In this document: positions 21,931-47,086 of the stretch, in pieces
Numbering within the stretch: position 1 is the first letter of the stretch
How the letters are laid out: the number at the start of each line of letters is the position of its first letter
Assembly (NCBI GenBank): GCA_964654185.1
Contig: CAZZIE010000004.1
Coordinates: 4,994-68,993, forward strand
Source of the DNA: an uncultured Spirochaetaceae bacterium
Lineage (GTDB): Bacteria; Spirochaetota; Spirochaetia; DSM-27196; PWMO01
DNA length: 64,000 nucleotides
Reading direction: 5' to 3'
Translations under genes and position numbers: made by a program
Notes under the pieces: generated by a model
What the model was told of the DNA's origin: nothing
The model's database searches: none
Seen by the model: only the letters and a program-made list of their open reading frames with translations

Positions 21931-22340
21931 GGCGACTCCTTTCTGGACCCGCCGGCGCTCGGCCCGGCCACGCTCGACGTGCCCCCGGCGCTCGGGGCGG
22001 CGTCGGCGTCAGCGTCAGCGCCGCTGCCCGCCAGGTCGTCCTGTACCGTTTGCGACGCGAGCGGGATGCCCGCCGCGTGAGCCGCCCGTATGAGGGCGTG
22101 CGAAGATATCGGATTGGTGAATACAATGAACACGATCAGCAGGGCCAGGCGCGGAAGCCAGCTCGGAAAGGCAATACCGACGCCCGCGAGGAACAGGATG
22201 GACCCGAGCGTCGTTGCCTTGGTGCCCGCCTGCATGCGGTTGTACACGTCCGGCATGCGAACAAGACCGAGGGCAGCCAGCAGCAGGAAGATCGCCCCTG
22301 CAATGCTCACCAGACCTCCGATTACGCCAAGAAGATCCAT
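21927..22340 (-). CDS. MnhG/MrpG-like subunit (MbxC-like)
   Basis: Start at MDLLGVIGGLVSIAGAIFLLLAALGLVRMPDVYNRMQAGTKATTLG (MnhG signature). The ATG at 22340 abuts the stop of the upstream gene (22342-22344). Confidence 0.8.
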   Translation of the reverse strand: MDLLGVIGGLVSIAGAIFLLLAALGLVRMPDVYNRMQAGTKATTLGSILFLAGVGIAFPSWLPRLALLIVFIVFTNPISSHALIRAAHAAGIPLASQTVQDDLAGSGADADADAAPSAGGTSSVAGPSAGGSRKESP

Positions 22341-22341
22341 G

Positions 22342-22602
22342 CTAGAGCCCCCTTTCCAGGTAGCGGGCAACCGCCACAACGCCGAGGAAACTGACGAGCC
22401 CGTAGACCAGGGCGACATCAATGTAGATTACTCGCCCGCTCACCACCGCAATGAAGGCAATGATCGATATGGAGATGATGGTCATTCCATCCAGACCGAC
22501 GGTGCGGTCCGCAGCGGATGGACCCGCCAGCACTCGCGCAAACGCCAGGACGGCGGCCACGACGGCAATGCCCCCGGCAACCCAGAACAGGGTCTCAACC
22601 AC
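22342..22602 (-). CDS. MnhF/MrpF-like subunit (MbxB-like)
   Basis: 86 aa with three TM helices (RVLAGPSAADRTVGLDGMTII...ARYLERG), which is the MrpF pattern. Confidence 0.75.
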   Translation of the reverse strand: MVETLFWVAGGIAVVAAVLAFARVLAGPSAADRTVGLDGMTIISISIIAFIAVVSGRVIYIDVALVYGLVSFLGVVAVARYLERGL

Positions 22603-32294: not shown

Positions 32295-34139
32295 TCAGGC
32301 CGGCTCGACGGGCACCTTTACCGCGTGGGCGGCTCCGGCGACGCCGGCACGCAGCGCCTCAATGTCCCGCAGGGAGGCGCGGCCGGCGTAGTGGGTGTGG
32401 AGGAGATGATGTGAGCGCTCGCCGAGGGGCGCCCCGAGGAACTCCGTGTAGAGCTCCTGCACCGCCGGGTTCTCGTGAGACATGCGGATGGGGCGCGATT
32501 CGTCCTCTTCGTAAATGGCGCGGATCCGCGCCTCCCGCACCTCATTGGTGGTGAAACGGGGCTGGCCTCCGCCGCCGATGCATCCGCCCGGACAGGTCAT
32601 GATCTCGACGAAGTGGTACTCCTTCTCACCCCGGGCAATGAGGTCCAGCACGTCCCGGGCGTTGGAGAGGCCGTGGGCAACCGCCACACGGAGGGTCGCC
32701 CCCTCAAGGAAGCTCCACTCCGGCAGGGCACCCTTCACGGTGAGCTCCGCCTCCTTCACGCCCTGCAGGCCCGCAAGGGGCTCCACATGGAGGGCCGGGG
32801 TACCGAGGGGCTTGCCCGTCACGACGGCGTGGGCCGTCCGGAGGGCCGCCTCCATGACACCCCCGGTGTTGGCGAAGATGTCCGCCGCTCCCGTCGAGAT
32901 GCCCAGCGGCGCATCCATTTCGGAGTCCTCGAGGTTGGGAAAGTCGATCCCCGCCTCGCGGATGATCTCGCCGAGTTCCCGGGTGGTAAGCACCCAGTCG
33001 ACGTCGCGGACACCGCTGTCGGTCATCTCCGGGCGCGCCGCCTCGAACTTCTTGGCCGTGCAGGGCATGACCGACACGACCGAGATGTCCTCGGGACTCG
33101 TGCCGAGTTGTTCCGCGTAGTAGCTCTTCGCCAGGGCGCCGAACATCTGCTGCGGGCTCTTGCAGCTCGATATGTTGGGCAGGAACTGCGGGTAGAAGTG
33201 CTCGGCGTAGTTGATCCACCCGGGAGAGCAGCTCGTGAACTGCGGCAGGGCCACCTCCTCGCCGTCGACGAGGGCACGCTTCAGCCGCATGAGCAACTCG
33301 CTCGCCTCTTCCATGATCGTGAGATCCGCCGTGAAGTTGGTGTCGAATACGGCGTCGAAACCGAGTTGCCGAAGCGCCGAGACCATCTTGCCGGTGACCC
33401 GACTCCCGGGAGGATACCCGAAGCACTCTCCGATCGAGGCGCGGATTGCCGGCGCAGTCTGTACCACCACCGTCTTATCGGGATTGCCCAGGTCACGCCA
33501 GACACCGTCGACGTGACGCACCTCCGTAATTGCCCCGACCGGGCAAACCGCCGCGCATTGACCGCACTGCACGCAGGGCGTACCGTCCAGGTCGTTCGCG
33601 AAGGCCGGTCCGACCACCGTGGCAAAACCGCGGTTCTGCGCTCCCAGAGCGCCGACCGCCTGAATGGAGTTGCACACCGTCACGCAGCGGCGGCACTTGA
33701 TGCACTTCGCCGTCTCGCGAATGAGCGCCTCCGTGCTCAGGTCGACGAGCTTGCTCGCCCGCTCGCCCTCGTAGGGAATCTCCCGGATCCCCAGGTCGTA
33801 GGCGAGCGCCTTGAGCTCACAATCCTCGCTGCGGGCGCAGGTCTTGCAGTCGCCGTCGTGCTCGCTCAGAAGGAGCTCGACCACGGCGCGTCGCGCCTCC
33901 CGGACCCGGGGAGAGTTGGTCTTGACCTTCATCCCGTCGCGCACCGGGGTGGCGCACGCCGCCAGAGTGGTCCGGGCGCCTTCGACCTCCACCATGCACA
34001 CCCGACACGCGCCGGTTGGCTCGAGTCCCTGGAGGTTGCACAGCGTCGGAATCGTCACGCCGGCTCGTCGCGCCGCGGTAAGAATCGTATCGTCAGCTTC
34101 TGCCGGTACCGGCACACCGTTAATCGTCAGTTCAGCCAC
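32295..34139 (-). CDS. hydA: [FeFe]-hydrogenase catalytic subunit (M3-type: 2Fe-2S, His-ligated 4Fe-4S, 2x4Fe-4S, H-domain) with an atypical P1 motif
   Basis: H-cluster motifs are FTSCSPGW (P1, atypical), MPCTAKKFE (P2) and EIMTCPGGCIGGGGQP (P3). The N-terminal region LTINGVPV...CRVCMVEV is a 2Fe-2S domain. GTG start at 34139 (AAGGAGG 6 nt upstream) overlaps the hydB stop by 8 nt. Confidence 0.9.
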   Translation of the reverse strand: MAELTINGVPVPAEADDTILTAARRAGVTIPTLCNLQGLEPTGACRVCMVEVEGARTTLAACATPVRDGMKVKTNSPRVREARRAVVELLLSEHDGDCKTCARSEDCELKALAYDLGIREIPYEGERASKLVDLSTEALIRETAKCIKCRRCVTVCNSIQAVGALGAQNRGFATVVGPAFANDLDGTPCVQCGQCAAVCPVGAITEVRHVDGVWRDLGNPDKTVVVQTAPAIRASIGECFGYPPGSRVTGKMVSALRQLGFDAVFDTNFTADLTIMEEASELLMRLKRALVDGEEVALPQFTSCSPGWINYAEHFYPQFLPNISSCKSPQQMFGALAKSYYAEQLGTSPEDISVVSVMPCTAKKFEAARPEMTDSGVRDVDWVLTTRELGEIIREAGIDFPNLEDSEMDAPLGISTGAADIFANTGGVMEAALRTAHAVVTGKPLGTPALHVEPLAGLQGVKEAELTVKGALPEWSFLEGATLRVAVAHGLSNARDVLDLIARGEKEYHFVEIMTCPGGCIGGGGQPRFTTNEVREARIRAIYEEDESRPIRMSHENPAVQELYTEFLGAPLGERSHHLLHTHYAGRASLRDIEALRAGVAGAAHAVKVPVEPA

Positions 34140-37100
34140 GAGCTGCCTCCTTTTCCACTGTCCGGGCTTCCAGGCACTTGCCGAAGTCACAGCGCAGACA
34201 TCTCGACGCCTGGCGCAACGCCACAACCTCCGACCAGGACTTCTCGACCTCGCTGAAGTTGTGCCGCCGCCGCTCTACGGGAATGGTCTCCAGTGCCTCT
34301 CGTTCGAAGGGCACCGGATCCGCATCCGGGTCGAAGGCCACATCCACCGGCTTGTCCTCCCGCCAGAAGGCGTGATTCTCACCGGTCAGATAGAGATCGA
34401 TGCCGACGGCCGCCCGTTCGCCCGCCCCGATCGCTTCCACGACCGACGCAGGCCCCAGGACGGCGTCACCCCCGGAGAAGATCCAGGGCACACTTGTCTG
34501 ACCCGTCTGATGGTCCGCGCGGATGAAACCGTCCCGGCTCACGGCAACCCCGACGTCGGCGATCAGGGGCGCCGCATCCAGCTTCTGGCCGATTGCGACG
34601 ATCACCTGATCCGCGGGGATCTCAATGATCTCCTTGCCCCGCCGCGTCGGCCGGCGCCGTCCGCTCCGGTCGAAGTCACCCAGGGTGAGCTCCGCGCACT
34701 GCATGCCGGTCACCGCGCCGTTCTCGTCGCGCTCAATGCCCACCGGCTGCGTGAGGGTCCGCAGGTCGACGCCCTCGGCGACGGCCTCTTCGATCTCCTC
34801 CGCGTACGCCGGCATCTGGTCCCGGGTCCGCCGATAGACGACGGTAACTTCCGCGCCCAGACGGATCGCTGTTCGCGCCGCGTCGATAGCCGCATTCCCG
34901 CCGCCGACGACGACCACGCGGTCGCCCACCGGCGCGGAACCCCGAACGTTGTACTCCCGGAGGAAGTCACCGGCCCGGACCACGCCGTCACCGGCGCTTC
35001 CGGGAATGTCGAGATCGACACAGGCGGGGGACCCCGGGCCCAGGAAGACAGCGTCGTATCCATCGTCCTGAAGCTGCTTGAGGGTGAAGTCCCGGCCGAG
35101 GCGTTTCTCCGGATGGATGGTCACCCCGAGCTGCTCGATCATGCGGATCTCCCGCGCCAGGGTTTCCCGGGGCAGGCGGTATTCCGGAATGGCCTGAACC
35201 AGCATGCCGCCGGGTCGCGGCTGCGCCTCGAAGACCTCCGGACGGTAACCGAGCCGCGCCAGGAAGTAGCCGCAGGAGAGCCCCGCCGGCCCGGCGCCGA
35301 TGATCGCGACTTTCCGGTCGGCATTGGCCGGATCCTCCCGGACCTCCGGCGTCTGTACGACGATCTCCTGATCCACCATGAAGCGCTTCACCGCGCGGAT
35401 AGCTACCGGTGAATCGAGACTCGACCGGCGACACTTCTCCTCGCAGGTGTGGAAGCACACACGGGCGCACACCGCAGCGAAGGGATTCCGCTCCCGATGG
35501 AGGCGCAGCGCCTCGGCGTAGCGTTTCTCCTTGACCAGGCTGACAAAGCCGGGAACATCGACCCCGGCGGGACAAGCGGACTGACAGGGCGCCCGCACGA
35601 GGGATGGGCACACACCGGCGCTGCAGTGACGATCGCGGATGTGTTCGACGTACTCGTGCCGGAAGTGGCGGAGTGTCGAGAGCACGGGATTCGGCGCGGT
35701 CTGCCCCAATCCGCAGAGAGCGGTGTCCTTGATCGACCGACCGAGTCGCTCCAGCCGGTCGATGTCTTCCATCTCGCCCCGGCCCTCGCAGATCCGGTCC
35801 AGGATCTCCAGCATGCGCTTCGTCCCGACGCGGCAGGAGGTGCACTTGCCGCAGGATTCCTCCTGCACGAACTCCAGGAAGAAGCGCGCCACGTCGACCA
35901 TACAGGCGTCATCGTCCATGACAATGAGACCGCCCGACCCCATGATGGCGCCGAGCTCGTTCAGCGACGCGTAGTCGAGAGGAACGTTGAGGTGCTCCTT
36001 GGGGATGCACCCGCCGGAGGGTCCGCCGATCTGGGCGGCCTTGAAGGGCTTGTCGTTCTTGATGCCGCCACCGATGTCGTAGATCACCTCGCCCAGAGTC
36101 GTCCCAATGGGAACCTCCACCAGGCCGGCGTTTCGGATCGATCCCGCCAGGGCGAAAACCTTGGTGCCGGGACTGTCCTCGGTACCGCTCTTCTCGTAGG
36201 TGGCGGGGCCGAGGGAGAAGACCGCCGGGACGTTGGCGTAGGTCTCCACGTTGTTCAGGAGGGTCGGCTGCCCCCAGAGTCCCTTCTGCGCGGGAAAGGG
36301 TGGCCGTGGTCGCGGCTCGCCGCGCTTGCCCTCGATCGAATGGATCAGGGCGGTCTCCTCGCCGCACACGAAAGCACCGGAGCCCTTCCGGTACCCCAGG
36401 GTGAAGGAGAAGCCCGTTCCCATGATGTCGTCACCCAGGAGACCGTACTCGGTAGCCTGCTTGATGGCGTTGTCCAGGCGTGCAACCGCCAGGGGATACT
36501 CCGCCCGGACGTAGACGTACCCGGCGGAGGCACCGATGGCGAAGGCGGCAATGGCCATGCCCTCAATGACGCTGTGTGGATCGCCCTCGAGGAGACTCCG
36601 ATCCATGAAGGCGCCGGGGTCGCCTTCGTCGGCGTTGCAGAGCACGTACTTCGGGGTGCCCTCGGCAATGCGGGTGGCGTCCCACTTGAGCCAGGTCGGG
36701 AACCCGGCGCCCCCGCGACCGCGCAGGCCCGAGGTCTTCACGCCCTTGATCACGGCGGCAGGATCATTGGCCGCGAGGATGGTGGCCAGGCTCTGGTAGC
36801 CGCCGGCGGCAATGTAGTCATCTATGCTCGTGGGATCTATATTGCCGCAGTTTCTGAGCACCACCTTCTGCTGCCGACTGAAGAACTCAATGGCGTCGCG
36901 GTGATCCGCTGCCGCCTGTTCCTCCGAGACGTCGCGGTGGAAGAGCCGCTTGACGGGGTTGCCCGCGACAATGTGGCTCTCGACGATCTCCTTCGCGTCC
37001 TCGGGCCGTACGCCCTGGTAGAAGACGCCGTCCGGTTCCACCACGACCACCGGACCTTCGGCGCAGGGCCCCATGCATCCGGTACTCTTCAGCTCGACCT

Positions 37101-37296
37101 TTCCGAGAGCGCCGTCCTCTCCATCGGCGCCTCTCGCCGCGTCGAGGGCGCTCTCCAGGGCGGTGCGAATCTCGTCCGCACCCGACGCAAGACATCCACC
37201 ACCGGCGCAGACGAGAATCTTCCGGGGCTTCCGGGAGGAGGACTTCTTCAGTTTGGCCCGCAGGTTTGCAAGAGAGTCCGTAGATTTGACGTTCAT
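34132..37296 (-). CDS. hydB: HydB-type flavoprotein (Trx-like 2Fe-2S plus NuoF-like FMN/NADH/4Fe-4S) fused C-terminally to a GltD/NfnB-like FAD-NAD(P)H module
   Basis: ILVCAGGGC...GCMGPC, GLRGRGGAGFPTWLKW, NADEGDPGAF, ESCGKCTSCRVG, then CQSACPAGVDVPGFV...AAVCARVCFHTCEEKC, VAIIGAGPAGLSCGYFL, VVVVGGGNAAIDAART, FSGGD. ATG at 37296 overlaps the hydC stop (ATGA) and has GGAGG upstream. Confidence 0.88.
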   Translation of the reverse strand: MNVKSTDSLANLRAKLKKSSSRKPRKILVCAGGGCLASGADEIRTALESALDAARGADGEDGALGKVELKSTGCMGPCAEGPVVVVEPDGVFYQGVRPEDAKEIVESHIVAGNPVKRLFHRDVSEEQAAADHRDAIEFFSRQQKVVLRNCGNIDPTSIDDYIAAGGYQSLATILAANDPAAVIKGVKTSGLRGRGGAGFPTWLKWDATRIAEGTPKYVLCNADEGDPGAFMDRSLLEGDPHSVIEGMAIAAFAIGASAGYVYVRAEYPLAVARLDNAIKQATEYGLLGDDIMGTGFSFTLGYRKGSGAFVCGEETALIHSIEGKRGEPRPRPPFPAQKGLWGQPTLLNNVETYANVPAVFSLGPATYEKSGTEDSPGTKVFALAGSIRNAGLVEVPIGTTLGEVIYDIGGGIKNDKPFKAAQIGGPSGGCIPKEHLNVPLDYASLNELGAIMGSGGLIVMDDDACMVDVARFFLEFVQEESCGKCTSCRVGTKRMLEILDRICEGRGEMEDIDRLERLGRSIKDTALCGLGQTAPNPVLSTLRHFRHEYVEHIRDRHCSAGVCPSLVRAPCQSACPAGVDVPGFVSLVKEKRYAEALRLHRERNPFAAVCARVCFHTCEEKCRRSSLDSPVAIRAVKRFMVDQEIVVQTPEVREDPANADRKVAIIGAGPAGLSCGYFLARLGYRPEVFEAQPRPGGMLVQAIPEYRLPRETLAREIRMIEQLGVTIHPEKRLGRDFTLKQLQDDGYDAVFLGPGSPACVDLDIPGSAGDGVVRAGDFLREYNVRGSAPVGDRVVVVGGGNAAIDAARTAIRLGAEVTVVYRRTRDQMPAYAEEIEEAVAEGVDLRTLTQPVGIERDENGAVTGMQCAELTLGDFDRSGRRRPTRRGKEIIEIPADQVIVAIGQKLDAAPLIADVGVAVSRDGFIRADHQTGQTSVPWIFSGGDAVLGPASVVEAIGAGERAAVGIDLYLTGENHAFWREDKPVDVAFDPDADPVPFEREALETIPVERRRHNFSEVEKSWSEVVALRQASRCLRCDFGKCLEARTVEKEAARG

Positions 37297-37796
37297 TCCG
37301 CTGCCTCCGTCCCTCGATACTGATCGAGAAGGTCCGCCGCCCGGGCGGGCTTCACCTGCTGGTGAACGTCCTCGTCGATCACGACGACCGGTGCCAGCCC
37401 ACATGCGCCGAAGCACCTGCCGATCTCCAGGGTGAACTCTCCGTCTCCCGTGGTATCCCCTACCGAGACGCCCAGGCAGTCGCACAGGCGTTCCACCAGC
37501 TGTTTACCGCCGCGGACGTAGCACGCCGTTCCCAGACACGCGCGAACGGTGTGGCGTCCTCGCGGTTGCGTCGAGAAGAGGGAGTAGAAGGAAACCACTC
37601 CCGCCACTTCGCTGTAGGGAATCTTCAGAGTCCCCGAGATGTGCTGCAACACCTCCTCGGGCAGATACCCGAGCCACTCCTGCACGTCCTGCAGGACCGG
37701 TATGAGGGCACCGCGCTCCTCGATGTGCGTTTCGATGATCGAATCCAGCTGTTCGTAGGAGAAGGTTGCGGGAAGCGGGTGGACGGAGTTCGACAT
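37293..37796 (-). CDS. hydC: NuoE-like [2Fe-2S] subunit of the hydrogenase
   Basis: ALIPVLQDVQEWLGYLP...CLGTACYVRG...IGRCFGACGLAPVV. AGGAGG upstream. Confidence 0.88.
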   Translation of the reverse strand: MSNSVHPLPATFSYEQLDSIIETHIEERGALIPVLQDVQEWLGYLPEEVLQHISGTLKIPYSEVAGVVSFYSLFSTQPRGRHTVRACLGTACYVRGGKQLVERLCDCLGVSVGDTTGDGEFTLEIGRCFGACGLAPVVVIDEDVHQQVKPARAADLLDQYRGTEAAE

Positions 37797-37869: not shown

Positions 37870-37908
37870 ATATCGATATTTCCCAATAGATATCTTAGCA
37901 TCGATATC
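37870..37908. promoter_or_regulatory. array of three ATMGATAT boxes spaced exactly 14 bp apart (candidate operator)
   Basis: ATCGATAT at 37872-37879 (within the perfect palindrome ATATCGATAT, 37870-37879), ATAGATAT at 37886-37893 (within AGATATCT), and ATCGATAT at 37900-37907. Confidence 0.5.
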
Positions 37909-37919
37909 TGACCTGTCAA
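37892..37919 (-). promoter_or_regulatory. sigma70-like promoter for hydCBA
   Basis: On the minus strand: TTGACA (complement of 37914-37919), 16 nt, TAAGAT (complement of 37892-37897). The boxes above overlap the spacer, the -10 element and the early transcribed region. Confidence 0.55.
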
Positions 37920-37960: not shown

Positions 37961-38377
37961 ATGGCTGCCGGAGGTTCTGTTTCTCGTGCTCCGGCGGTTG
38001 CCTCCAGGCCCGGAAGCGAAGTATGCTCCCTGTGCCCAATGCGAGTTCGTGAATCCCATTCTGAAGTACTGACGCGGCTGGTTCGGTCGCTGCCGAAAGT
38101 GGTCGTACAGAACCGCCTCATGGCAACGAGTGACCGGGACGTTGCCCTGGCACTGCTCTACGTTCCCAAAGAGGATCGTCGGCCCGTTCTCGAGGCAATA
38201 TCAAAGGCCAAGCGCACGCGTGTGGAGGAGGAGATCCTCCTCCACGAACGCCTGCAGATTTCGTGGAAGCATTATGAAACGGCGGTCTCGCAGCTGATCC
38301 GCGCCCTGCAGGAGAACAGCGCGCAGAAGGGCGCCCGAAGCTATCTGCGACCGCTCAGGCCCCGCCCTTCCGAATAA
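37961..38377 (+). CDS. small protein with a FliG-C/MgtE-N-like helical repeat (hypothetical)
   Basis: ATG at 37961 with AGGAAA upstream. [36 protein letters not shown]...[13 protein letters not shown] resembles the FliG C-terminal/ARM-like motif (..DRD.alALk....e.r..il..mSkRaa..l.eem). Confidence 0.45.
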
Positions 38378-40898
38378 AGGCGTCCCGGTAACCTTTGGCG
38401 CGAATCCAGTACAGGACGCTACCCCGCTCGTCCTCATTCAACGGTCCAACAAAGAGGCGGTACAGCTCACGATCTTCGCCTGCCGCGGAGAGGACCGCGA
38501 CGGGATAGGTACCGCGAAGATTGTCCACCGCGCTCTTTGCACTCTGGGGATCCGAGAAGGCCCCGACCTGGAGGTAGAAAGACTCCGGCGATAGCGTGTT
38601 GATGAGCGGCAGATTCTCCCTGGCCCAGCTCCGCCCAACCCGGACCGGTTCCTCCGGCGCCGGCTCCTCGGGCTCGGCTTCCTCGGGGGGTTCCTCTTCC
38701 GGCGCTTCGGCGACGCGTTCCTCGGGCTCTTCCGCAGCGGGCTCTTCCGGAGCGGGCTCTTCCGGAGCCGGCGCCTCCTCCGGGGCTTCCTCGGCGGGCG
38801 GCCGCTCGGTCACCCGGGGAGGACGCTCTTCCGCGGGCTCGAGCCTCGGTTCTGCGACGGTAGCCTCCGGTGGCTCCATCTCCTCGTCCTGGGGCGGTTC
38901 CGCCCGCTCAATCGGCGGTTCCGGCTCCGTGGCTGCAAGGCTCGGCGCCTCCGCACCGTCGGCAAACTCCTCCGCCGGCGGCTCGACCTGCCCGAGTGTT
39001 GCCTCAGGCTCGGTCACTTCCGCAACGGCGGTCGGCTCCTCGGGCTCCGCCTCCTCCGCAACGGGAGGTTCCAGTTCCTCTTCTGCGCGATCCTCCGCCT
39101 CAGCCACGGTCGGCGCCGGCGTGCGCGCCGCGATCTCCGAGGGCTCCTCGTCGCTGTCAGGGGTCTCCAGGCTCTCCTCTGAGGGATCCGCGAGCTCCGG
39201 CGGCCGCAACTCGGCGGGCTCCAGCGAGATGACCGCGTCTTCGGGAATCGTCGGCGTTATGGTCTCTTCGGCCTCGGCCTCCGGCTCTTCCGCAACAGCT
39301 TCGTCCCCCTCCGCCGGCGGGCCGGGCTCCGCCTTTGCGAGGCGCTCGGGAAGCTCGTCATCCGGCGCAGCGATCCGCCCGAGGCCCTCGGCGATCGGCC
39401 TCTTCGGGGTCGGACTTGCAAGCACAGCGGCCGGACCGAGCCCTTCGACGGGAGGAGACACGACGGGGAGCCCGTCGGCATCGACCTCAGGAGCCTCTGC
39501 CGGAGCCTCTTCATCAGGCGCCTCTTCCGCCGGTGCCGCCTCGGCCGGTGCGTCCTCGGCAATGCGCGGCTCGTCGGTTACGTCGGGTCGCGCCATGGAA
39601 GTGCCGGCCAGGGCCTCCGCCTCGTCCGGAGGTACCGGCGTGGCGAGATAGGTCCCAACATCGTCGGGCTGCGGCGCAGGAAAGAGGTTCTTCCGGGGAA
39701 ACCGGTCGCTCAGGGCGCGCAGAGATTCCGCCAGAACGCTCGGTGCCGCCTCCGCGGGCTCTACCGGCTCCGCAGGCTCAGCCGGTTCCTCGGCGGGTTC
39801 CGCCACCTCGGGTTCCGCAGCGGGTTCAGGCTCCGCGGGCGGACTCGGCGGGAGGACTTCCGCGACGGGAGGCTCCTCCGGCGTCGGCTCGGGGACCGCA
39901 AGAGTGTCCGTCGTTGCCGGCGTCTCTGCCGGCTCCTCCGCGGGTTCCGCCTCGGCGCGGCGCAGACCCTCCGAAGCTTCGCGAATGCCCGCGCCCAGGC
40001 CGCGGCCTGCACGAGAAGCGGCCTCAGCCTCGGGTTGCTCTTCCGGCTCGGGCTCCTCCTCGGGCTCGGGCTCCTCAGCCGCCTCGGCTACCGGAGCCTC
40101 CTCGTCCTCGGGACGGATGGCTTCCTGCACCTCGGGGGTCGGAATCCCGTTACCGGGCTCCTCCCGGGGAGGGGCGGGGGTCATGGGAAGGCTCTCATCC
40201 GGCGCTTCGGCTACGCGCGGCGCAGCCTCTTCGGCCGGCTCCGGTTCCGGTTCAGGTTCAGGCTCCGGTTCAGGTTCAGGTTCAGGTTCCGGCTCCGGTT
40301 CAGGTTCAGGTTCCGGTTCAGGTTCGGGTTCGGGTTCGGGCTCCGGTTCGGGTTCGGGTTCCGGCTCCGGCTCCGGCGCGGGTTCGGGTTCAGGTTCGGG
40401 TTCAGGTTCCGGCTCCGGCTCCGGCTCAGGTTCGGGCTCGGCCTGGGCAACGGATTCCGGGACCTCACGCTGCCGGAGGATCTCGCGGTTCGGGTCGGAG
40501 AGGCTCGCAGAGGGGTTCACCTCGGGATCCCGGCTGTACGCGGCTTCGGGGCCGGCGGGAACGGCCGCGAGTCCGCCGGTGGTAGCCGGCTGTACGCGCA
40601 CCTGGGCGGGATCGTCCGCGTCGAGACCGAGTTGATCGGCGGCATCCTGGGACACCGTCAGGAAGATTCCCGGCTGAGATACGCGCCCCACCACAATGAC
40701 CTCGACGGTACGGCCGTTCTCCGGGTTGGTCACCTCGATCACGGTGTTCCGCTCAAAGCTGTTGGAAGCGGCGTAGAGACCTTCCCGGGGGAACTGGTTA
40801 TATCCGCCGACGGCGGCGGTGCCTTCCCAGACGTTCTGCCCGAACAGAAAGCCTGCGCAGACCACGAGAAAGATGAGACTTAATGCGAACCGCTTCAT
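38355..40898 (-). CDS. RlpA-like (DPBB) lipoprotein-type protein with a long acidic Glu/Pro/Ala-rich spacer and a C-terminal SPOR domain
   Basis: Start at [20 protein letters not shown] (ATG at 40898, GGAGGAG upstream). DPBB-like segment: [23 protein letters not shown]...[13 protein letters not shown]. About 600 aa are low-complexity, including about 34 EP dipeptides. SPOR-like segment: [21 protein letters not shown]...YRLFVGPL. Confidence 0.8.
40236..40440. repeat. hexanucleotide (GGYTCN) tandem repeat of about 34 units encoding (Glu-Pro)n
   Basis: An uninterrupted run of GGCTCC/GGTTCC/GGTTCA/GGTTCG units, read directly from the sequence. Confidence 0.9.
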
Positions 40899-40949
40899 GT
40901 CGAGACTCCTCCACCTTTTATGTTCGGCGCGCCGGGAAAAGAGTTGAGT

Positions 40950-40982
40950 GCGGTTGCAGCCGCTCCGTGATCGAGCAACCGC
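40950..40982 (-). terminator. candidate intrinsic terminator between the hypothetical gene and the RlpA/SPOR gene
   Basis: GCGGTTGC (40950-40957) pairs with GCAACCGC (40975-40982). On the minus strand it is followed by ...CTCTTTTCC. The 13-bp direct repeat CCGCTCCGTGATC (40960-40972 and 40979-40991) overlaps it. Confidence 0.4.
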
Positions 40983-41004
40983 TCCGTGATCAAAGGACGT
41001 TTCT

Positions 41005-41508
41005 CTATCGCATCTTCTCCGAAAACGCCGATCCGACGCGCCGTCCGAGGTTGTAGCCGGCCCGCTCAATGCTTCCGGCCTCCTCGTCACTGAGGACTTC
41101 CACCGGCAGGGTCTCGCTCCGGGGAGCCCGGCCGCCGCCGATCTGCATCCACGCGTACTCCACCTCGCGGAGTACGAGAGCGTCCCGCCCGCGATCGAAG
41201 GTGACGACGGCGTCCACGACGTACCCGGCGCCCCCATCGCTCGCAATCTCCACGACCTGTGCGGTGCTGGAGACTGCGTCATGCCGGGACCGGTTGAAGA
41301 CGATGTGCCCCATGTCGAAGAGCACGTCCATGATGCCCGCCTCGACGCTGCTCAAGTAGAATCCGACGTGGTCGGAGCCGGTATACTCTTCATTCGCTCG
41401 CACGGAGACCATGACGGTCTCCGCGAAGCCGGCGCCGGCAACGAACACTGCAAGGATCACAATCAACGCGACGCGGCGGCAGGTGATTAAGCCAAGGGGT
41501 AATCTCAT
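41005..41508 (-). CDS. hypothetical exported protein
   Basis: Start at [29 protein letters not shown] (signal/TM). No family recognised. The start is uncertain; ATG at 41553 is an alternative. Confidence 0.5.
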
Positions 41509-41811: not shown

Positions 41812-42348
41812 ATGGAGTACTTCGTCGCGCAAGTACGGACCCGAAAGGAGTCCGCGTACATACGGTTGGCAAACAACCTCGAGCTCCCCGGAGTGCACCG
41901 GCTCATGTGGCCGCGCCGTGTGTTGAAAATACGAAGAAGAGGGATGGTCAAGAAGGCCGATGTGCCGGTCTTCCCCGGATACGTCTTCATTGAGGCCGAT
42001 GAGATTACCCCGGAGACGTACCAGCGCCTGCGCCGGTTGCCCTACTTCCTTCGCTTCCTCCCGGAGAACGAGGATATCAAACCCCTCAGTGATGAGGACA
42101 AGCGGGTGATCGCGCATCTCATTTCGTACGGCGAGGTCGTGCAGCCTTCCCGGGTGACCTTTGACGAGAACTCGCGCATTCTGGTGCTGGAAGGACCGTT
42201 GAAGGGACTTGAAGGACGCATTACGAAGATCGATCGTCGAAAGGGGCGCGCCAGAGTGCGCCTCGACCTCTACGACAACGCCTTCGAGGTGGACTTTGCA
42301 TTTGAGTCGCTGGAAAAGCTGAAGTCGACGGAACATGAGCGGACATGA
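41812..42348 (+). CDS. NusG-family specialised paralogue (RfaH/LoaP/UpxY-like antiterminator)
   Basis: YFVAQVRTRKESAY...VFPGYVFIEAD (NGN domain) and a C-terminal KOW-like segment (VLEGPLKGLEGRITKIDRRKGRARVRL). It sits first in a polysaccharide-type operon. GTG at 41803 is an alternative start. Confidence 0.75.
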   Translation: MEYFVAQVRTRKESAYIRLANNLELPGVHRLMWPRRVLKIRRRGMVKKADVPVFPGYVFIEADEITPETYQRLRRLPYFLRFLPENEDIKPLSDEDKRVIAHLISYGEVVQPSRVTFDENSRILVLEGPLKGLEGRITKIDRRKGRARVRLDLYDNAFEVDFAFESLEKLKSTEHERT

Positions 42349-43823
42349 GCGGTAAGAGACGCAATCGCATCTACATCATTGGCGCCGGTTTCGCCGGGAT
42401 GTCCATTGCGCGGGATATTCGCGCCAAGGAGATCCTTGGGGAGGTCGTCGCTTTCCTTGACGACGACCCGCAGAAGATCGGAACGCGTGTCGACGGGGTT
42501 CCCGTCCTCGGTCCGATCGATGCGGTTGCGGAGATCGTCGACAAGACCCCCGCGGACGAGGCGCTGATTGCCATTCCCAGTGCCGGCCGGGAGAAACTGC
42601 GACAGCTCTATCAGCTCCTGGAGAACGCGGACTTCGCGAAGATTCGAATTCTCCCGGCGGTCTCACAGATTATTGAGGGAGATGCCCATTTCATTCAGAC
42701 CCGCGAGCTCAATCCCGAAGACCTTCTGGGCCGCAACCCCGTGAAGATCGGGCTGCGCGAGAGCCTCCGGTACCTCCGGGGCAAACGCGTCGTCATCACC
42801 GGCGCCGGCGGCAGCATTGGAAGCGAGTTGGCCCGGCAGCTCCTCTCCGGCGGGGCGCAGCGCCTCTACCTCTTTGGTCACGGTGAAAACAGCATCTACG
42901 AGATCGACCGGGAACTGCGGCTCCTTCAGGAAGAGGGCGTCGGCGAGAGGGCAACCATTGTGCCGGTCATCGGGGAGCTCCAGGACCGCGACTACATGCG
43001 CTTCATCCTGAAGAGACTGAAGGCCGATGTCATCTTCCACGCCGCCGCGTACAAACACGTACCCATGGTGGAGGCCAACCCGGTAGTCGCGGTGAAGAAC
43101 AACGTCCTCGGCACGCAGAACCTGGTTGACGCGGCGCTGGAAGCGGGCACCGAGCGCTTTGTGCTCATTTCGACCGACAAGGTCGTGGAGCCGACCTGCG
43201 TCTACGGCGCCTCCAAGAAACTCGCCGAGGAGATCGTGCTGGCGGCGCGGAGCAATCACGGCTCCTACATGGTCGTCCGGTTCGGCAACGTCCTGGGCTC
43301 CCGGGGAAGCATTGTGCCCCTCTTCCATCAGCAGATCGCCAAGGGCGGCCCCGTAACCATTACTCACCCTGAAGTTTCCCGCTTCTTCATGACCATACCG
43401 GAGGCGTCCAGTCTGGTGCTCAAGGCGGGGGGCGTCGGCGATCCCGGCGCGCTCTACGTCCTCGACATGGGCGAGCCGGTGCGCATTCAGGATCTTGCAG
43501 AGCAGATGATCCGCTTCTACGGCTACGAGCCCCACAGTGAGATCGGCGTCTCCTACATCGGGTTGCGCACCGGAGAGAAGCTCACGGAAAGCCCCATCGG
43601 TCCCGGTGAGAGCCCCTGCGACACGCCGTACCCGCGCATCAAGCGCCTGGAGCGTAACGAGCCTGCGGCCGGGTGGCTTACCGAGGTGATCGAGGAGCTG
43701 CGGCCGGTTTGTCAGTTCGATTCGGAGCGGCCGGACGTGTTCAGAAACCGCCGCGCCCTGCGACAGGCTCTGGCACGGCACTTCCCGACCCTGGAGACGA
43801 AGCCCGATGAGCCGGAGTACTGA
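42345..43823 (+). CDS. CapD/PglF/WbpM-type nucleotide-sugar 4,6-dehydratase/epimerase (soluble form)
   Basis: IYIIGAGFAG...VVITGAGGSIGSEL...FHAAAYKHVPMVE...STDKVVEPTCVYGASKKLAE. The ATG overlaps the upstream stop (ATGA). Confidence 0.85.
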   Translation: MSGKRRNRIYIIGAGFAGMSIARDIRAKEILGEVVAFLDDDPQKIGTRVDGVPVLGPIDAVAEIVDKTPADEALIAIPSAGREKLRQLYQLLENADFAKIRILPAVSQIIEGDAHFIQTRELNPEDLLGRNPVKIGLRESLRYLRGKRVVITGAGGSIGSELARQLLSGGAQRLYLFGHGENSIYEIDRELRLLQEEGVGERATIVPVIGELQDRDYMRFILKRLKADVIFHAAAYKHVPMVEANPVVAVKNNVLGTQNLVDAALEAGTERFVLISTDKVVEPTCVYGASKKLAEEIVLAARSNHGSYMVVRFGNVLGSRGSIVPLFHQQIAKGGPVTITHPEVSRFFMTIPEASSLVLKAGGVGDPGALYVLDMGEPVRIQDLAEQMIRFYGYEPHSEIGVSYIGLRTGEKLTESPIGPGESPCDTPYPRIKRLERNEPAAGWLTEVIEELRPVCQFDSERPDVFRNRRALRQALARHFPTLETKPDEPEY

Positions 43824-44991
43824 GTACATTCCCTTTGCGCGCCCGGCAACCGGCGCGGAGGAGGAGGCTGCGGTCCTTCGGGTTCTCAGGAGCGGATGGC
43901 TCACTACCGGAACGGAGGCGCAGCAGCTGGAGCGCTCCTACGCGCTGGCGGCGGGACGACGCCACGCTGTCGCGGTTTCCTCCGCCACGGCGGGGCTGCA
44001 CCTGGTCTGTGAGGCGCTCTCCCTCCGGAAGGGCGCCCGCGTGGCCATGAGCCCGTACACCTTCACGGCCTCCGCGGAGATTCTGCGCTATCTCGACCTG
44101 CACCCGACCTTCGTAGACATCGACCCTGAAACTCTTCAGATGGATCCGCGCGCCCTGGAGGCGGAGCTCGCGGCCGGTGAAGGAATCGCCGCGGTCATGG
44201 CGATTCACATTGCCGGGTTGCCGAGCGACATGGCTGCGATCCGGAGCATTGCGCAGCGACATGAGATTCCGGTGGTGGAGGACGCGGCGCACTGCCTGCC
44301 GAAGAGCGGAGACGCCGCCGTTCCGGACGGGGGATCCGCCGCAGCGATCTTCTCCCTCTACGCGACGAAGCCGGTCACCGCCGGGGAGGGGGGCATTGTT
44401 GTCACCGACCGCGACGACCTGGCCGAGCGCACCCGGGTCATGCGGCTTCACGGAATCGACCGGGACGTCTGGCGGCGCTACACCGACCGCGCGGCGACCT
44501 GGCGGTACGACGTCGTTGACGCGGGATACAAGTACAACCTCCCGGACCTGCTGGCGGCGGTCGGCCGCGTCCAACTCGAGAGCGCCGAGGCGCGGCGCGC
44601 CCGACGGCGAGAGATTGCCCGGCGCTACCACGACGCCCTTCGGGATCGCGATTATCTGAAGCTCCCGCAGGATCACCCCGATCACGACTGGCATCTCTAC
44701 ATCGTCCGGGTGACGCCGGCGGCGCTTCGGGACCCCTTCGTCGCCGGTCTCGCCGAGGCTGGGGTCGGGACGTCGGTCCACTACATTCCCCTGCACCACT
44801 TCAGCTACTACCGCAGCACCTACGGCCTCTCCCCGGAGGACTTTCCCGCGGCAACCCGCGCCTTCCAGGCGGCGGTGAGTCTGCCCCTCTACGCGGGCCT
44901 CACCGACGGAGAGGTCGACCGGGTGATTGCCGCCGTGCTGGACGTGGGAGACACTCTCTCCAGGAGGTTCGAGCGTGTCTCAGGAGAGTAG
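43807..44991 (+). CDS. DegT/DnrJ/EryC1/StrS family PLP-dependent sugar aminotransferase
   Basis: YIPFARPATGAEEEAAVLRVLRSGWLTTG...SLYATKPVTAGEGG... Confidence 0.85.
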   Translation: MSRSTEYIPFARPATGAEEEAAVLRVLRSGWLTTGTEAQQLERSYALAAGRRHAVAVSSATAGLHLVCEALSLRKGARVAMSPYTFTASAEILRYLDLHPTFVDIDPETLQMDPRALEAELAAGEGIAAVMAIHIAGLPSDMAAIRSIAQRHEIPVVEDAAHCLPKSGDAAVPDGGSAAAIFSLYATKPVTAGEGGIVVTDRDDLAERTRVMRLHGIDRDVWRRYTDRAATWRYDVVDAGYKYNLPDLLAAVGRVQLESAEARRARRREIARRYHDALRDRDYLKLPQDHPDHDWHLYIVRVTPAALRDPFVAGLAEAGVGTSVHYIPLHHFSYYRSTYGLSPEDFPAATRAFQAAVSLPLYAGLTDGEVDRVIAAVLDVGDTLSRRFERVSGE

Positions 44992-47086
44992 TCTCCCCCG
45001 GCTCTTCCGCCGCCCCACCGTTTTTGCCAGCGATCTGACCGCGCCGGACATGCTCCACGCCGTGACGCTCCGGTCGACGCGCCCACGCGGAAGCATTGGG
45101 GATCTCCCGCGCCTGCGCGTGCCCACGGACATCCATCTCTTCGGTGCCGACGACGTGCCCGGCGCGAACCTCGTCACGATCGGCGGCGGCAGTCACCCCG
45201 TCCTGGCGGATGACCGGGTGAGTTACGTGGGGCAGCCGATTGCCGTGCTCGCCGGGCCGGACATCCGGAGGGTGCATCAGTCGCTGGATCTCCTTCAGCC
45301 GGAGTACGGCGACGAGGAGGCGGTGCTGGACGAGGACTCGGATAGCGCCGAGATCGCCGGGGAACGTTTCGCCGAGCGGGGCAATCCCGACGGGGAACTC
45401 CGCGACGCCTTCCAGATTGTCCAGGGAACCTACCGTACGGGGCCTCAGGAGCACCTCTACAGCGAGCCCCAGGCCGTTTTCGCCACACCGGAAGGGACCG
45501 AGTCGGTTACCGTGTACACTTCAACCCAGTGGCCGCACCACGTGCAGCGCTCCATTGCCCGGGCGCTGGGCGTGCCTCTCAAACGCGTCCGGGTCATTGC
45601 AACGGAGACGGGAGTCCACCTCGACGGGAAGCTCTGGATTCCCTCCCTCATCTCGGTACACGCCGCCCTGGCGGCACTCCGAACGGGCCGACCGGTGAAG
45701 CTGGTCTACACGCGTCAGGAGGACTTCCGCTTTACCTCGAAGCGGGCACCGGTTCGGGTGCGCTACACGACCGCCCTGGATTCGAGCGGCGATCTCCGGG
45801 CGGTGATCGTCTTCATTCGCGTGAATGTGGGAGCCTTCCCCATCTACCTGGACGAGCTCCTCGATCACCTGGTGATTTCGGCCACCGGTGACTACCGGTG
45901 CGACAACATCCGCGTCCACGCCGTGGCACTCAAGACCAACCTCCCCCCTTTCGACGCTTTCTCGGGCCTCGGAAGCGCCCAGGCCTTCTTTGCCTGCGAG
46001 AGCCACACCACCCGGGTGGCGGAGGTGGCGCAGGAGTCCCCGCTTGCGTGGAAGGCGGCGCACCTCCTCCGCAAGGGTGACACGCACCCCCTCGGCGGGA
46101 AGGAGCAGGAAGACCGGGAGGCGTACAAGCTCTTCGACCGTGTCGATGAGGCTTCCGACTTCTCCCGGAAGCACGCCGCCTTCGAGCTCCAGAAGAAGCG
46201 GCGAACCACCTTTCTCGGCGCCACGGAAGAGCAGCGGGGAATCGGCATTGCCTTCGCATCTCAAGGGAGCGGCTTCGTCGGCCGGGGCGAGGAGGAGATC
46301 TCCGCGTCGGTGCGCATTCGGCTAGATCAGGAGGGTGTCGCAACGGTGTACAACTCCGCGGTGTCCGAGGGAGAGTCCCTCCGCGCCATCTGGACCGACC
46401 GGATAGCCGCCGCGCTCAACCTCAACCGCGAGAATGTGCATTTTGCCGACACCGACACGGCGGTCGTCCCGGACTCGGGGCCGTCCTTCCTGTCACGGAA
46501 CATTACGGCGGTCACTCGCGCCCTGGACCTTTCCTGCGCGGCCATCCAGAAGCGCCGCTTCCGTGATCCCCTGCCCATTGAGGTGTCCCGAAGCTACCGC
46601 GTGCCCCGGGTCCTCACCTGGAACCGCGAAACCGTATCGGGAAAGCCCTACGCCAACCTCTCCCGGGCCGCCGCGGTGGTAGAGCTCTCCGCCAACCCGT
46701 CCACCCTGGAGATGCATGTCCGGGGGATCTGGCTCGCGGTGTTCGCCGGCAACATACTTGATCCGAACGGCGCCCGGAAGAAGCTCGAGATGTCGGTCTA
46801 CCAGGCAATGGGGTGGGCCGCATCCGAAGCGCTGGACTACCAGTCCGGGCTCCTGGCGGCCCACGCCTATGAGCAGTACGCACCGGATCTCTGGTCGCAG
46901 TATCCGCCCATTTCCATTGACTTCGCCGGCGATCTGGAGAAGCTTCCCTCCCTCGGGCTGGAGGAGCTACCATTCAACTGCGTGCCGGCGGCCTACGCGG
47001 CGGCGGTGACCCAGGCGACAGGGCACTACATTGACCGGATACCTGCGACGGCGGCACTCCTGCGCTCTTATCTGGAGGAAGAGTGA
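44975..47086 (+). CDS. xanthine dehydrogenase/aldehyde oxidase family large (molybdopterin-binding-like) subunit, divergent
   Basis: LHAVTLRS...SYVGQPIAVLAG, QEHLYSEPQA, TQWPHHVQRSIARALGVPLKRVRV, GRPVKLVYTRQEDF. GTG at 44975 has AGGAGG 7 nt upstream and overlaps the degT-like gene by 17 nt. The canonical GGGFGGK motif is replaced (see findings). Confidence 0.7.
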   Translation: MSQESSLPRLFRRPTVFASDLTAPDMLHAVTLRSTRPRGSIGDLPRLRVPTDIHLFGADDVPGANLVTIGGGSHPVLADDRVSYVGQPIAVLAGPDIRRVHQSLDLLQPEYGDEEAVLDEDSDSAEIAGERFAERGNPDGELRDAFQIVQGTYRTGPQEHLYSEPQAVFATPEGTESVTVYTSTQWPHHVQRSIARALGVPLKRVRVIATETGVHLDGKLWIPSLISVHAALAALRTGRPVKLVYTRQEDFRFTSKRAPVRVRYTTALDSSGDLRAVIVFIRVNVGAFPIYLDELLDHLVISATGDYRCDNIRVHAVALKTNLPPFDAFSGLGSAQAFFACESHTTRVAEVAQESPLAWKAAHLLRKGDTHPLGGKEQEDREAYKLFDRVDEASDFSRKHAAFELQKKRRTTFLGATEEQRGIGIAFASQGSGFVGRGEEEISASVRIRLDQEGVATVYNSAVSEGESLRAIWTDRIAAALNLNRENVHFADTDTAVVPDSGPSFLSRNITAVTRALDLSCAAIQKRRFRDPLPIEVSRSYRVPRVLTWNRETVSGKPYANLSRAAAVVELSANPSTLEMHVRGIWLAVFAGNILDPNGARKKLEMSVYQAMGWAASEALDYQSGLLAAHAYEQYAPDLWSQYPPISIDFAGDLEKLPSLGLEELPFNCVPAAYAAAVTQATGHYIDRIPATAALLRSYLEEE

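Follow-up and report, generated by a model that had tools for sequence, protein, structure and literature searches.

We describe here a 64,000-nucleotide stretch of DNA from an uncultured Spirochaetaceae bacterium (the window; positions 4,994 to 68,993 of contig CAZZIE010000004.1, assembly GCA_964654185.1), and in particular an operon of three genes which lie on the minus strand in the order hydC, hydB, hydA. Judged from their sequences, the products constitute a trimeric HydC-HydB-HydA [FeFe]-hydrogenase of group A3 (Bfu-type), sub-type I BfuABC, in which the C-terminal half of HydB is a GltD-like module. An earlier sequence-only reading of the window, made without database searches, had proposed a hydCBA operon with a middle subunit of 1054 amino acids (aa), and this is confirmed by translation of the open reading frames (ORFs), by the context of the start codons and by the domains detected with Pfam and NCBIfam; the coordinates and length assigned earlier to the middle gene hold and its strand is corrected to minus. 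The hydB start is an ATG at position 37296 which is preceded by GGAGG and overlaps the stop codon of hydC (ATGA). A longer GTG-started hydB ORF, extending up to 37485, was rejected; it has no homolog support and would cross hydC. The hydA gene starts with a GTG at 34139, with an 8-nucleotide (nt) overlap with the hydB stop and a perfect AAGGAGG upstream. Given these start and stop overlaps, and the GGAGG and AAGGAGG sequences at hydB and hydA, we conclude that the three genes are translationally coupled.

For HydB, Pfam yielded matches to 2Fe-2S_thioredx (residues 25-106), Complex1_51K (186-357), SLBB (381-429), NADH_4Fe-4S (468-552), Fer4_20 (560-644) and Pyr_redox_2 (662-959), and among NCBIfam profiles a NuoF model covers residues 149-553 beside GltD-type models at about 541-1043. 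These boundaries bear out the domain order that had been read from the letters, namely a thioredoxin (Trx)-like [2Fe-2S] domain, a NuoF-like core and a GltD-like module. Together with alignments to solved BfuB proteins, the Pfam matches also support the earlier claim that a complete GltD-like module has taken the place of the C-terminal 2x[4Fe-4S] ferredoxin domain. Homologs were sought among 5.8 billion proteins, and at least 119 protein clusters were found with full-length members of 1000-1081 aa, showing 65-75% identity and 93-100% query coverage (mostly 96-100%); most are annotated merely as 'NuoF' or 'FAD-dependent oxidoreductase'. Residue conservation, here and below, was counted over 119 aligned homologs.

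A frameshift or stop at the NuoF/GltD junction had been named as a possible flaw in the reading. None is present: the architecture is continuous in at least 119 clusters and 80 genomic loci, and conservation across the junction is 100%. Since the same architecture occurs in independent assemblies, in complete chromosomes and in one isolate genome, the fusion is not an assembly artefact, frameshift, chimera or pseudogene, and the chance that mis-assembly or a frameshift merely joined two adjacent genes is negligible; moreover, the permuted tail described below makes sense only within one polypeptide. Among Protein Data Bank (PDB) chains up to April 2026 none spans both halves of the fusion. Both halves were confirmed in a predicted (AlphaFold) model of the HydB monomer.

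The N-terminal 569 residues are identified by alignment and by the predicted structure as a bona fide BfuB. Matches to solved bifurcating subunits range from E 2e-219 (A. mobile HydB, 7t2r_B) to 1e-186 (T. maritima HydB), with core identities of 52-57% over about 570-600 aligned columns, and of 64-66% where the match spans 412-427 columns (7t2r_B, 8a5e_B and 7q4w_B). The predicted model superimposes on BfuB chains with template modelling (TM) scores, normalised to the target, of 0.84-0.95. The four ligands of the N-terminal [2Fe-2S] ('B5') site are 100% conserved and those of the [4Fe-4S] 'B1' cluster are invariant. The loops GLRGRGGAGFP, CNADEGDPGAF and GAFVCGEETAL, which form the site for flavin mononucleotide (FMN) and NADH, the reduced form of nicotinamide adenine dinucleotide (NAD), are essentially invariant, two positions being nearly so. 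Because these NuoF loops, including GAFVCGEETAL, are essentially unchanged, NAD(H) is to be expected at the HydB FMN by analogy with canonical HydB.

The core is followed by a hinge, the motif of which aligns with the HIRDKKCPAxxC of all solved BfuB proteins. Conservation is 100% for C465, H552, C558 and C563 and 91% for C503; these residues map onto the Zn ligands C437, H524, C529 and C534 of T. sibiricus NfnB and also onto an extra (fifth) Cys, C476, of the A. mobile protein. The hinge His is kept in virtually all Bfu B subunits and is absent from non-bifurcating homologs (PMC12018979). Thus far the sequence features of the Bfu family (bifurcating BfuBC core; Schut et al. 2022, PMC9304861) are all found, with a NuoF-type FMN/NAD(H) site and B1, the Zn hinge, B5 on BfuB and the C1 cluster on BfuC. 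The family's B3/B4 unit, a C-terminal ferredoxin-type 2x[4Fe-4S] domain with two CX2CX2CX3CP motifs, is missing. Alignments to every canonical BfuB end at residue ~568, where the ferredoxin-like domain would start, and after residue 569 there is no Fer4-type domain; instead, two [4Fe-4S] sites of the unrelated Fer4_20/DPD_II fold occur.

From R568/A569 onwards HydB aligns to the NADPH module of the Bfu-type NfnA/StnC proteins, NADPH being the reduced form of NAD phosphate (NADP). The best matches are to 9bov_A (residues 101-568, E 1.7e-109), 9n5u_A (3.6e-102) and 8oh5_C (residues 101-573, 1.8e-98), with weaker ones to the NfnB of NfnSL (4ylf_B, 6.5e-91) and to true GltD (~1e-54). By this measure the nearest relative of the module is the NADPH module found in Stn/NfnABC transhydrogenases, and the predicted model of the domains for flavin adenine dinucleotide (FAD) and NADP(H) likewise matches the NfnL-like domain of 9bov_A, 8oh5_C and 9n5u_A.

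The order of segments within the module is altered. Residues ~1007-1041 align with T. maritima NfnB at its N-terminus (residues 13-47; PESRRRNFEEV...EAQRCLQCPTHPC). On its own, the tail hits positions 1-35 of the Fer4_20 profile (E 1e-4), and a BLAST comparison of the module with the NfnB encoded elsewhere in the window yields the same split alignment. In an in silico de-permuted construct, with the tail placed before residue 568, the match covers Fer4_20 positions 1-106 and scores 96.8 bits against 77.9 in the native order. The Fe-S domain has therefore undergone circular permutation, the breakpoint falling within the CxxCx4C motif. The ~95-aa tail ending in RCLRCDFGKC that had been reported earlier is thus present, not as an extra feature; it consists of a linker and the permuted N-terminal segment of the GltD Fe-S domain. 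C1033 and C1036 are 100% conserved. We rejected the idea that the tail cysteines C1033, C1036 and C1041 form a cluster of their own or a NuoG-type His/Cys3 site: position 1041 is a Cys in 3% of the homologs, the invariant C571 fills the role of the third Cys, and the profile match of the tail also contradicts it. In the model, residues 1041-1054 are probably disordered.

The proximal ligands were assigned via the published cluster A7 of Csac NfnA (C108, C147, C151, K170; PMC11829005), and map to C575, C614, C618 and K637. By elimination the distal [4Fe-4S] cluster falls to C571, C622, C1033 and C1036, so that the Fe-S domain proper holds two of the distal and all of the proximal ligands together with an extra invariant Cys, C610. 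All eight ligands are invariant in the family, and the distal cluster would be assembled from residues at the two ends of the module, right beside the Zn hinge. K637, a Lys in 119/119 homologs, occupies the position of K170 in both StnC and Csac NfnA. The FAD of StnC was shown to be non-bifurcating, and its proximal cluster is Lys-ligated, where bifurcating NfnB has Glu (PMC10482914). The FAD motif GxGxxG (667-672), R707 (equivalent to StnC R239 and NfnB R201) and GGGNAA (798-803) are conserved across the family, and in YRR(T/S) (821-824), the motif for the 2'-phosphate of NADPH, the Y821, R822 and R823 residues are invariant and position 824 is T or S. A GltD part devoid of cofactor-binding residues, another possible flaw raised beforehand, is therefore not what these eight ligands and conserved FAD/NADPH motifs describe, and the proposal of two pyridine-nucleotide sites, one at FMN and one at FAD, gains support from them and from the invariant FMN/NADH loops.

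The module shares with the Stn/Nfn-type Bfu enzymes a permuted order, a Lys-ligated proximal [4Fe-4S] cluster and the NADPH motif. In those enzymes it resides in an A subunit lacking an H-cluster; here it lies in HydB, and the H-cluster domain of HydA is complete. The traits of NfnAB/NfnSL, a non-permuted NfnB with a Glu-ligated proximal cluster and an NfnA partner, are absent from a module that is permuted, carries an invariant Lys and has no nfnA in its operon. An internal contrast is provided by a canonical nfnAB pair (8783-11325, minus strand) located ~23 kb from the hyd operon. Given this separate pair, with its non-permuted, Glu-bearing NfnB, the fused module must be a distinct device and not the Nfn transhydrogenase of the cell. 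A recent duplication of the genome's own GltD-type genes was also considered and ruled out; the module is 38-39% identical to two paralogs in the window, both of which are non-permuted.

The other two subunits are of conventional build. HydC matches Pfam 2Fe-2S_thioredx over residues 18-161 (E 4e-47) and its translation shows the C1 ligands C87, C92, C128 and C132 in a C-x4-C...C-x3-C arrangement. HydA consists of an N-terminal [2Fe-2S] domain, a His-ligated [4Fe-4S] cluster, a 2x[4Fe-4S] domain and the H-cluster domain (Fe_hyd_lg_C, E 2e-96), with no C-terminal [2Fe-2S] domain. It scores 856.9 bits against the model NF040763 for NADH-dependent [FeFe]-hydrogenases (cut-off 765) and is closest to A. 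woodii HydA1 (7q4v_A, E 4e-178). The H-cluster motifs P1, P2 and P3 are all present, as TSCSPGW, MPCTAKKFE and EIMTCPGGCIGGGGQP. The second Cys of the textbook P1 motif, TSCCPxW, is a ligand of [4Fe-4S]H in CpI. The TSCSPGW variant was rejected as the mark of an inactive or sensory HydA; it is common to HydA and A. woodii HydA1, which belongs to a solved bifurcating complex, and Ser in P1 is reported as common in A3 enzymes (PMC11406978).

Table 1. Features of the hyd operon, segments of HydB and the separate nfnAB pair, with positions in the window.
Feature	Positions	Strand	Description
hydC (BfuC)	37293-37796	minus	167 aa, NuoE-like thioredoxin-fold [2Fe-2S] subunit
hydB fusion (sub-type I BfuB)	34132-37296	minus	1054 aa + stop codon
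hydA (BfuA)	32295-34139	minus	614 aa, GTG start, M3-type [FeFe]-hydrogenase
Candidate sigma-70-type promoter of hydCBA	37892-37919	minus	TTGACA, 16 nt spacer, TAAGAT, extended TG; consensus match only
HydB residues 25-110, N-terminal Trx-like [2Fe-2S] ('B5' site)	36967-37224	minus	ligands C30, C35, C74, C78
HydB residues 144-552, NuoF-type FMN/NAD(H) core + [4Fe-4S] 'B1'	35641-36867	minus	ligands C482, C485, C488, C528
HydB residues 552-569, hinge H552-x5-C558-x4-C563	35590-35643	minus	Zn ('B2') site with C465 (and C503)
HydB residues 570-644, main part of GltD/DPD-type Fe-S domain	35365-35589	minus	Fer4_20 profile positions 21-108
HydB residues 645-970, FAD and NADP(H) Rossmann domains	34387-35364	minus	GAGPAG 667-672, R707, GGGNAA 798-803, YRRT 821-824
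HydB residues 971-1005, linker from FAD domain back to Fe-S domain	34282-34386	minus	mean column conservation 0.71; predicted local distance difference test score (pLDDT) ~63-76, mostly non-regular
HydB residues 1006-1040, permuted N-terminal segment of GltD Fe-S domain	34177-34281	minus	RRxNFxEVE...W...RQAxRCLRCDYGK; brings C1033, C1036
HydB residues 1041-1054 + stop, variable end	34132-34176	minus	mean conservation 0.26; pLDDT 34-39
nfnA	10360-11325	minus	DHODB_Fe-S_bind + NAD_binding_1
nfnB	8783-10273	minus	496 aa, non-permuted; N-terminal RCLQCKNAPC...CP; Glu ('RLERY') at proximal ligand position

In the HydDB scheme, group A3 comprises enzymes with the H-cluster motifs P1, P2 and P3 and a neighbouring NuoF-domain protein, as found here. 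Group A2 requires a neighbour with a GltA/GltD domain and no NuoF, and the partner of HydA carries both domains. The 'glutamate-synthase-linked' subgroup named in the sequence-only reading is this group A2, and because its rule excludes NuoF-containing partners that assignment falls and the enzyme is placed in A3. Within A3, Zheng and Huang (2024, mSystems, PMC11406978) defined five BfuABC sub-types in Hydrogenedentota. In sub-type I, B3/B4 of BfuB is replaced by DPD_II (2x[4Fe-4S]) plus a FAD/NAD(P) domain, and HydA is of the M3a-type with Ser at position 5 of P1; it was reported in Spirochaetota, Planctomycetota, Verrucomicrobiota, Kiritimatiellota, Pseudomonadota and Hydrogenedentota (PMC11406978). 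The operon shows the same replacement and an M3a-type BfuA, and by these sequence features the enzyme is a further member of sub-type I, a fusion that was already known in silico. With regard to an identical enzyme in the literature, which had been anticipated as grounds for setting the reading aside, such a description therefore exists at the in silico level, and no biochemical characterisation was found. To the domain-level account, as given in the accessible text of PMC11406978, we add the circular permutation, the Stn-type affinity, the Lys ligand and the retention of the Zn hinge. A text search of Schut et al. 2022 (PMC9304861) yielded no mention of GltD, NfnB or a fusion in BfuB, and the only NfnB-type (FAD/NADP+) domain described there is in BfuA.

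The fusion is abundant, being present in hundreds of species, including members of the Spirochaetota, Planctomycetota, Kiritimatiellia, Omnitrophota, Fibrobacterota and Bacteroidota. In addition to the protein clusters above, a scan of one genome per GTDB species revealed 486 stretches encoding a HydB relative, and the following statements on loci refer to the best 80 of the 486. These are all full-length or nearly so and derive from more than 10 phyla: Spirochaetota, Omnitrophota, Fibrobacterota, Kiritimatiellia/Verrucomicrobiota, Lentisphaerae, Planctomycetota, Bacteroidota, Latescibacterota, Hydrogenedentota, Marinimicrobia, Sumerlaeota, and records labelled Nitrospirales and Pseudomonadota. 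Among them are complete chromosomes and one isolate, Vibrio sp. CAU 1672, and the closest is an uncultured Spirochaetaceae metagenome-assembled genome (L001; 91% identical). In ~77 of the 80 loci hydC lies directly upstream and hydA directly downstream of hydB, the exceptions being mostly cut by contig ends. The tight range of identities across phyla suggests horizontal spread of the fusion, as was also concluded by Zheng and Huang (PMC11406978).

More distant NuoF-GltD fusions form roughly ten further clusters at 50% clustering, with 36-50% identity. Some are not associated with a hydrogenase (36-47% identity; L081 6001-9117, L084 927-4094, L086 5001-12686, L085 and L087). One fusion is preceded by a molybdopterin subunit of the formate-dehydrogenase type and by a poly-ferredoxin, NuoE being absent, another occurs with NuoE and a 403-aa protein resembling the NuoG N-terminus and lacking a catalytic domain or H-cluster, and others are found as tandem NuoE-fusion pairs, beside a two-component system, or alone. 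In a regular-expression scan of ten distant representatives, the module ended in RCLRC or RCLQC in all ten and the hinge junction H-x5-C-x4-C-x7-C-x3-CP was found in all except P0147. The ligand position was caught in five, with Glu in three (P0127, P0133, P0144) and Lys in two.

HydABC-type hydrogenases constitute the main H2 valve of anaerobic fermenters, and how they split electrons at the FMN/Fe-S site is still debated. In canonical Bfu enzymes, mid-potential electrons from the third substrate reach B1-FMN-C1 via the A-subunit chain and NAD+ is reduced at the FMN, low-potential electrons are passed on by the mobile C1 domain to B3/B4, located in the C-terminal domain that BfuB carries on its hinge, and ferredoxin docks between this B3/B4 domain and the C-terminal domain of BfuC (PMC12018979). 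Except for the C-terminal ferredoxin domain, the HydB fusion keeps the parts of this core: the FMN/NAD(H) site, B1, the N-terminal [2Fe-2S] cluster, the Zn hinge, and C1 on HydC. The two-cluster FAD/NADP(H) module is attached to this hinge where the ferredoxin domain would otherwise be. We infer that the enzyme is a ferredoxin-independent hydrogenase that couples H2 to both NAD(H) and NADP(H), and assign this reading a probability of about 0.45, somewhat short of even. Electrons from H2 would enter at the H-cluster and run along the Fe-S chain of HydA to B1-FMN-C1. One pair would leave as NADH at the FMN, and the other branch would lead from C1 to the distal [4Fe-4S] cluster, the proximal Lys-ligated [4Fe-4S] cluster, FAD and NADP+, instead of from C1 to B3/B4 and ferredoxin. 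The net reaction would be 2 H2 + NAD+ + NADP+ <-> NADH + NADPH + 2 H+, and the FAD would act as a simple 2e-/1e- converter and NADP(H) port, with no second bifurcation site. The ideas put forward in the sequence-only reading, an NADP-linked or an Nfn-like coupled hydrogenase, are still the leading hypotheses. In vivo the enzyme might run in either direction, evolving H2 from NADH and NADPH in fermenters or generating NADPH from H2.

The energetics are compatible with either direction. In vivo potentials are about -280 mV for NADH and about -380 mV for NADPH (PMC9304861). By our own Nernst arithmetic, the mean for the NADH/NADPH pair, about -330 mV, equilibrates with roughly 1e-3 bar H2, and therefore the reaction would be reversible at environmental H2 levels. 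The coupling would allow NADH to be oxidised to H2 at ~50-fold higher H2 than NADH alone (again our arithmetic) and, in reverse, H2 would charge the NADPH pool. It is possible, albeit doubtful, that the enzyme is moreover a ferredoxin-free electron-bifurcating hydrogenase, with a low-potential branch ending in a flavin and a pyridine nucleotide, such that at the low H2 of sediments the exergonic reduction of NAD+ by H2 drives the endergonic reduction of the NADP+ pool, which is the more reduced of the two. If so, the reverse reaction would confurcate NADH and NADPH to H2, and a single complex would perform the work of HydABC plus Nfn.

The same cofactors could also be arranged as two independent nucleotide sites linked to the H-cluster by the Fe-S chain. 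The enzyme would then be an uncoupled hydrogenase, dependent on NADH and/or NADPH and active at low H2, like Hyd1ABC of Syntrophomonas wolfei, perhaps with uncoupled NADH:NADP+ transhydrogenation as a side activity. BfuB homologs lacking B3/B4 are indeed non-bifurcating and ferredoxin-independent (PMC9304861; PMC11406978), the Lys-ligated module serves as a plain NADPH port in Stn (PMC10482914), and, both acceptors having the same E0', coupling is not thermodynamically required. However, the Zn-hinge His and B5, both invariant here, are also missing from the non-bifurcating homologs (PMC9304861, PMC12018979), and a module still mounted on the hinge suggests that transfer has stayed gated and coupled to conformation. 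We regard such an uncoupled enzyme as unlikely.

A further alternative, which seems to us decidedly unlikely, is that ferredoxin is still a substrate and that HydABC has merged with an Nfn-like function, either with the FAD as a second bifurcating flavin and ferredoxin at the distal [4Fe-4S] cluster, or with ferredoxin at HydA/HydC and NADP(H) as an extra acceptor. Two bifurcation centres were raised by Zheng and Huang (PMC11406978), and in NfnSL two [4Fe-4S] clusters of this fold serve ferredoxin (PMC10482914). The extra Cys, C610, is shared with NfnB and not with StnC or Csac NfnA. R707, for its part, corresponds to the Arg that contacts the flavin N5 in NfnB, but an equivalent Arg is also present in the non-bifurcating StnC (PMC10482914). 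Moreover, the canonical ferredoxin-docking domain is gone, the operon encodes no NfnA/NfnS-like [2Fe-2S]/FAD partner, and the family-wide Lys stands in place of the Glu that is considered important for the low-potential branch of NfnB. By analogy K637 argues against an Nfn-type bifurcating FAD, because Lys at the proximal ligand position is found in Stn/NfnABC and Glu in NfnB. Finally, the GltD/NfnB/SudA family serves several partners, as reflected in NCBIfam matches to YgfK-, AegA- and PreA-type models, and the module might act on a substrate other than NADP(H), for example as a polysulfide- or sulfide-dehydrogenase-type unit, or dock a glutamate-synthase-like large subunit; with an invariant NADPH motif, NADPH ports as its closest relatives, and no large-subunit or other partner gene conserved beside the operon in the window or in the best 80 related loci, this is very improbable.

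Several points weigh against the coupled, ferredoxin-independent reading. NAD+ and NADP+ have the same standard potential, and bifurcation between them makes sense only with the in vivo gap between the NAD and NADP pools. In Stn/NfnABC the cassette sits on the mid-potential input branch and not on a low-potential output, and its cluster potentials may not suit the role proposed here. Ferredoxin could still bind at another site, such as HydA or, as in NfnSL, the distal cluster. The hydrogenase-free distant fusions that bear Glu indicate that the role of the module may differ between clades. The predicted structure of the HydB monomer is of no more than moderate confidence (pLDDT 78, predicted TM score 0.61). 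Literature searches for a purified or assayed member of the fusion found none, and PMC11406978 says likewise.

Were H2 coupled to NAD(H) and NADP(H) without ferredoxin, the redox partners would be wrong in metabolic models of these organisms, where the gene is annotated either simply as 'NuoF' or as an ordinary bifurcating hydrogenase. The enzyme would be the first in the Bfu family to have exchanged ferredoxin for another third partner. It would offer a natural experiment in the gating of the two branches by FMN-B1-C1, and also a convenient test system for the Bfu mechanism, given that both outputs are optically readable as NAD(P)H. The residue-level map of cofactors, and the recognition of the module as a permuted Stn-type cassette, allow specific mutants and assays to be designed, and turn a 'second flavin' into a specific, testable electron path.

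The surroundings of the operon were also inspected. The candidate promoter lies ~95 nt 5' of the hydC ATG and matches the consensus at 10 of 12 positions; five comparable candidate sigma-70 sites were observed in the region against 0.7 expected from shuffles. On the minus strand 3' of hydA no terminator-like site was seen, and the downstream gene is convergent and BrkB-like. No hydD, hydEFG or regulator genes adjoin the operon in the window. Directly upstream lies a 975-aa ORF (38355-41282, minus) whose sole Pfam match is a C-terminal, peptidoglycan-binding SPOR domain, the remaining ~900 residues having no Pfam match.

Elsewhere, an Mrp/Mbh-type membrane complex is encoded by a cluster at 11518-22421 (minus), with MnhG, MbhD, MbhE/MnhB, NuoK-like and 1149-aa antiporter-like subunits, NuoH-, NuoB- and NuoC-like subunits, and a NuoD-like large subunit (13324-14559). 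The large subunit has an N-terminal CRIC and lacks a C-terminal CxxC and, on this basis, looks Mbx/Mbs-like rather than like a NiFe hydrogenase. The last protein of the cluster (11518-13320, 600 aa) joins an N-terminal 2x[4Fe-4S] NuoI/MbhN-like domain to a complete, non-permuted GltD-type FAD/NADPH module with a YRRR motif and Lys at the ligand position. The genome thus has a second redox machine in which a ferredoxin-type subunit is joined to an NADPH port, and which is possibly an ion-translocating NADP(H)-linked complex. Sugar-nucleotide modification genes (Polysacc_synt_2, 42345-43823; DegT aminotransferase, 43807-44991), a xanthine-dehydrogenase-family molybdopterin subunit (44927-47086) and a CHASE2-adenylate/guanylate cyclase (503-3589, minus) look like ordinary context genes.

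Among known systems, S. wolfei Hyd1ABC, which is non-bifurcating and NADH-dependent, likewise has a HydB lacking B3/B4 and no ferredoxin requirement (PMC9304861, PMC11406978), but its HydB lacks all of B2-B5, whereas the HydB fusion keeps B2 and B5 and gains a redox module. The archaeal group F hybrid [FeFe]/[NiFe] hydrogenase (Greening et al. 2024, Cell, PMC11216029) is similar by description, in that a NuoF-like HydB with a GltA/GltD-type domain was modelled as the electron exit; it differs in being archaeal and multi-subunit with a different catalytic partner, and its authors guessed that ferredoxin binds at the glutamate-synthase domain. The large subunit of NfnAB/NfnSL (T. maritima 4ylf, P. 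furiosus 5jca) has the same fold and cofactors, 2x[4Fe-4S], FAD and NADPH. Unlike the HydB module, NfnB is non-permuted, has Glu at the proximal ligand position, depends on NfnA/S and bifurcates at its FAD.

Canonical HydABC (T. maritima, A. woodii and T. kivui; 7p5h, 7q4v, 8a6t) and A. mobile NiFe-HydABCSL (7t2r) share HydC, the HydB core (52-66%), the Zn hinge, the N-terminal [2Fe-2S] cluster, the HydA chain and the H-cluster motifs, and differ in that canonical HydB carries the ferredoxin-docking C-terminal domain (B3/B4, CX2CX2CX3CP) where the fusion has a ~485-aa FAD/NADP(H) module. StnABC/NfnABC (S. ovata 8oh5, C. saccharolyticus 9bov, T. sibiricus 9n5u) have the BfuBC core in common with the window enzyme, and also the permuted GltD/NfnL cassette, including the Lys ligand of its proximal cluster, a CxxC after the FAD domains and YRRT. 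In these enzymes, however, the cassette is inserted in an H-cluster-free A subunit, on the mid-potential branch, and BfuB keeps B3/B4 and binds ferredoxin, whereas in the window enzyme the cassette is on a BfuB lacking B3/B4 and the A subunit is a true hydrogenase. With the sub-type I BfuABC enzymes, the architecture is the same and nothing substantive differs.

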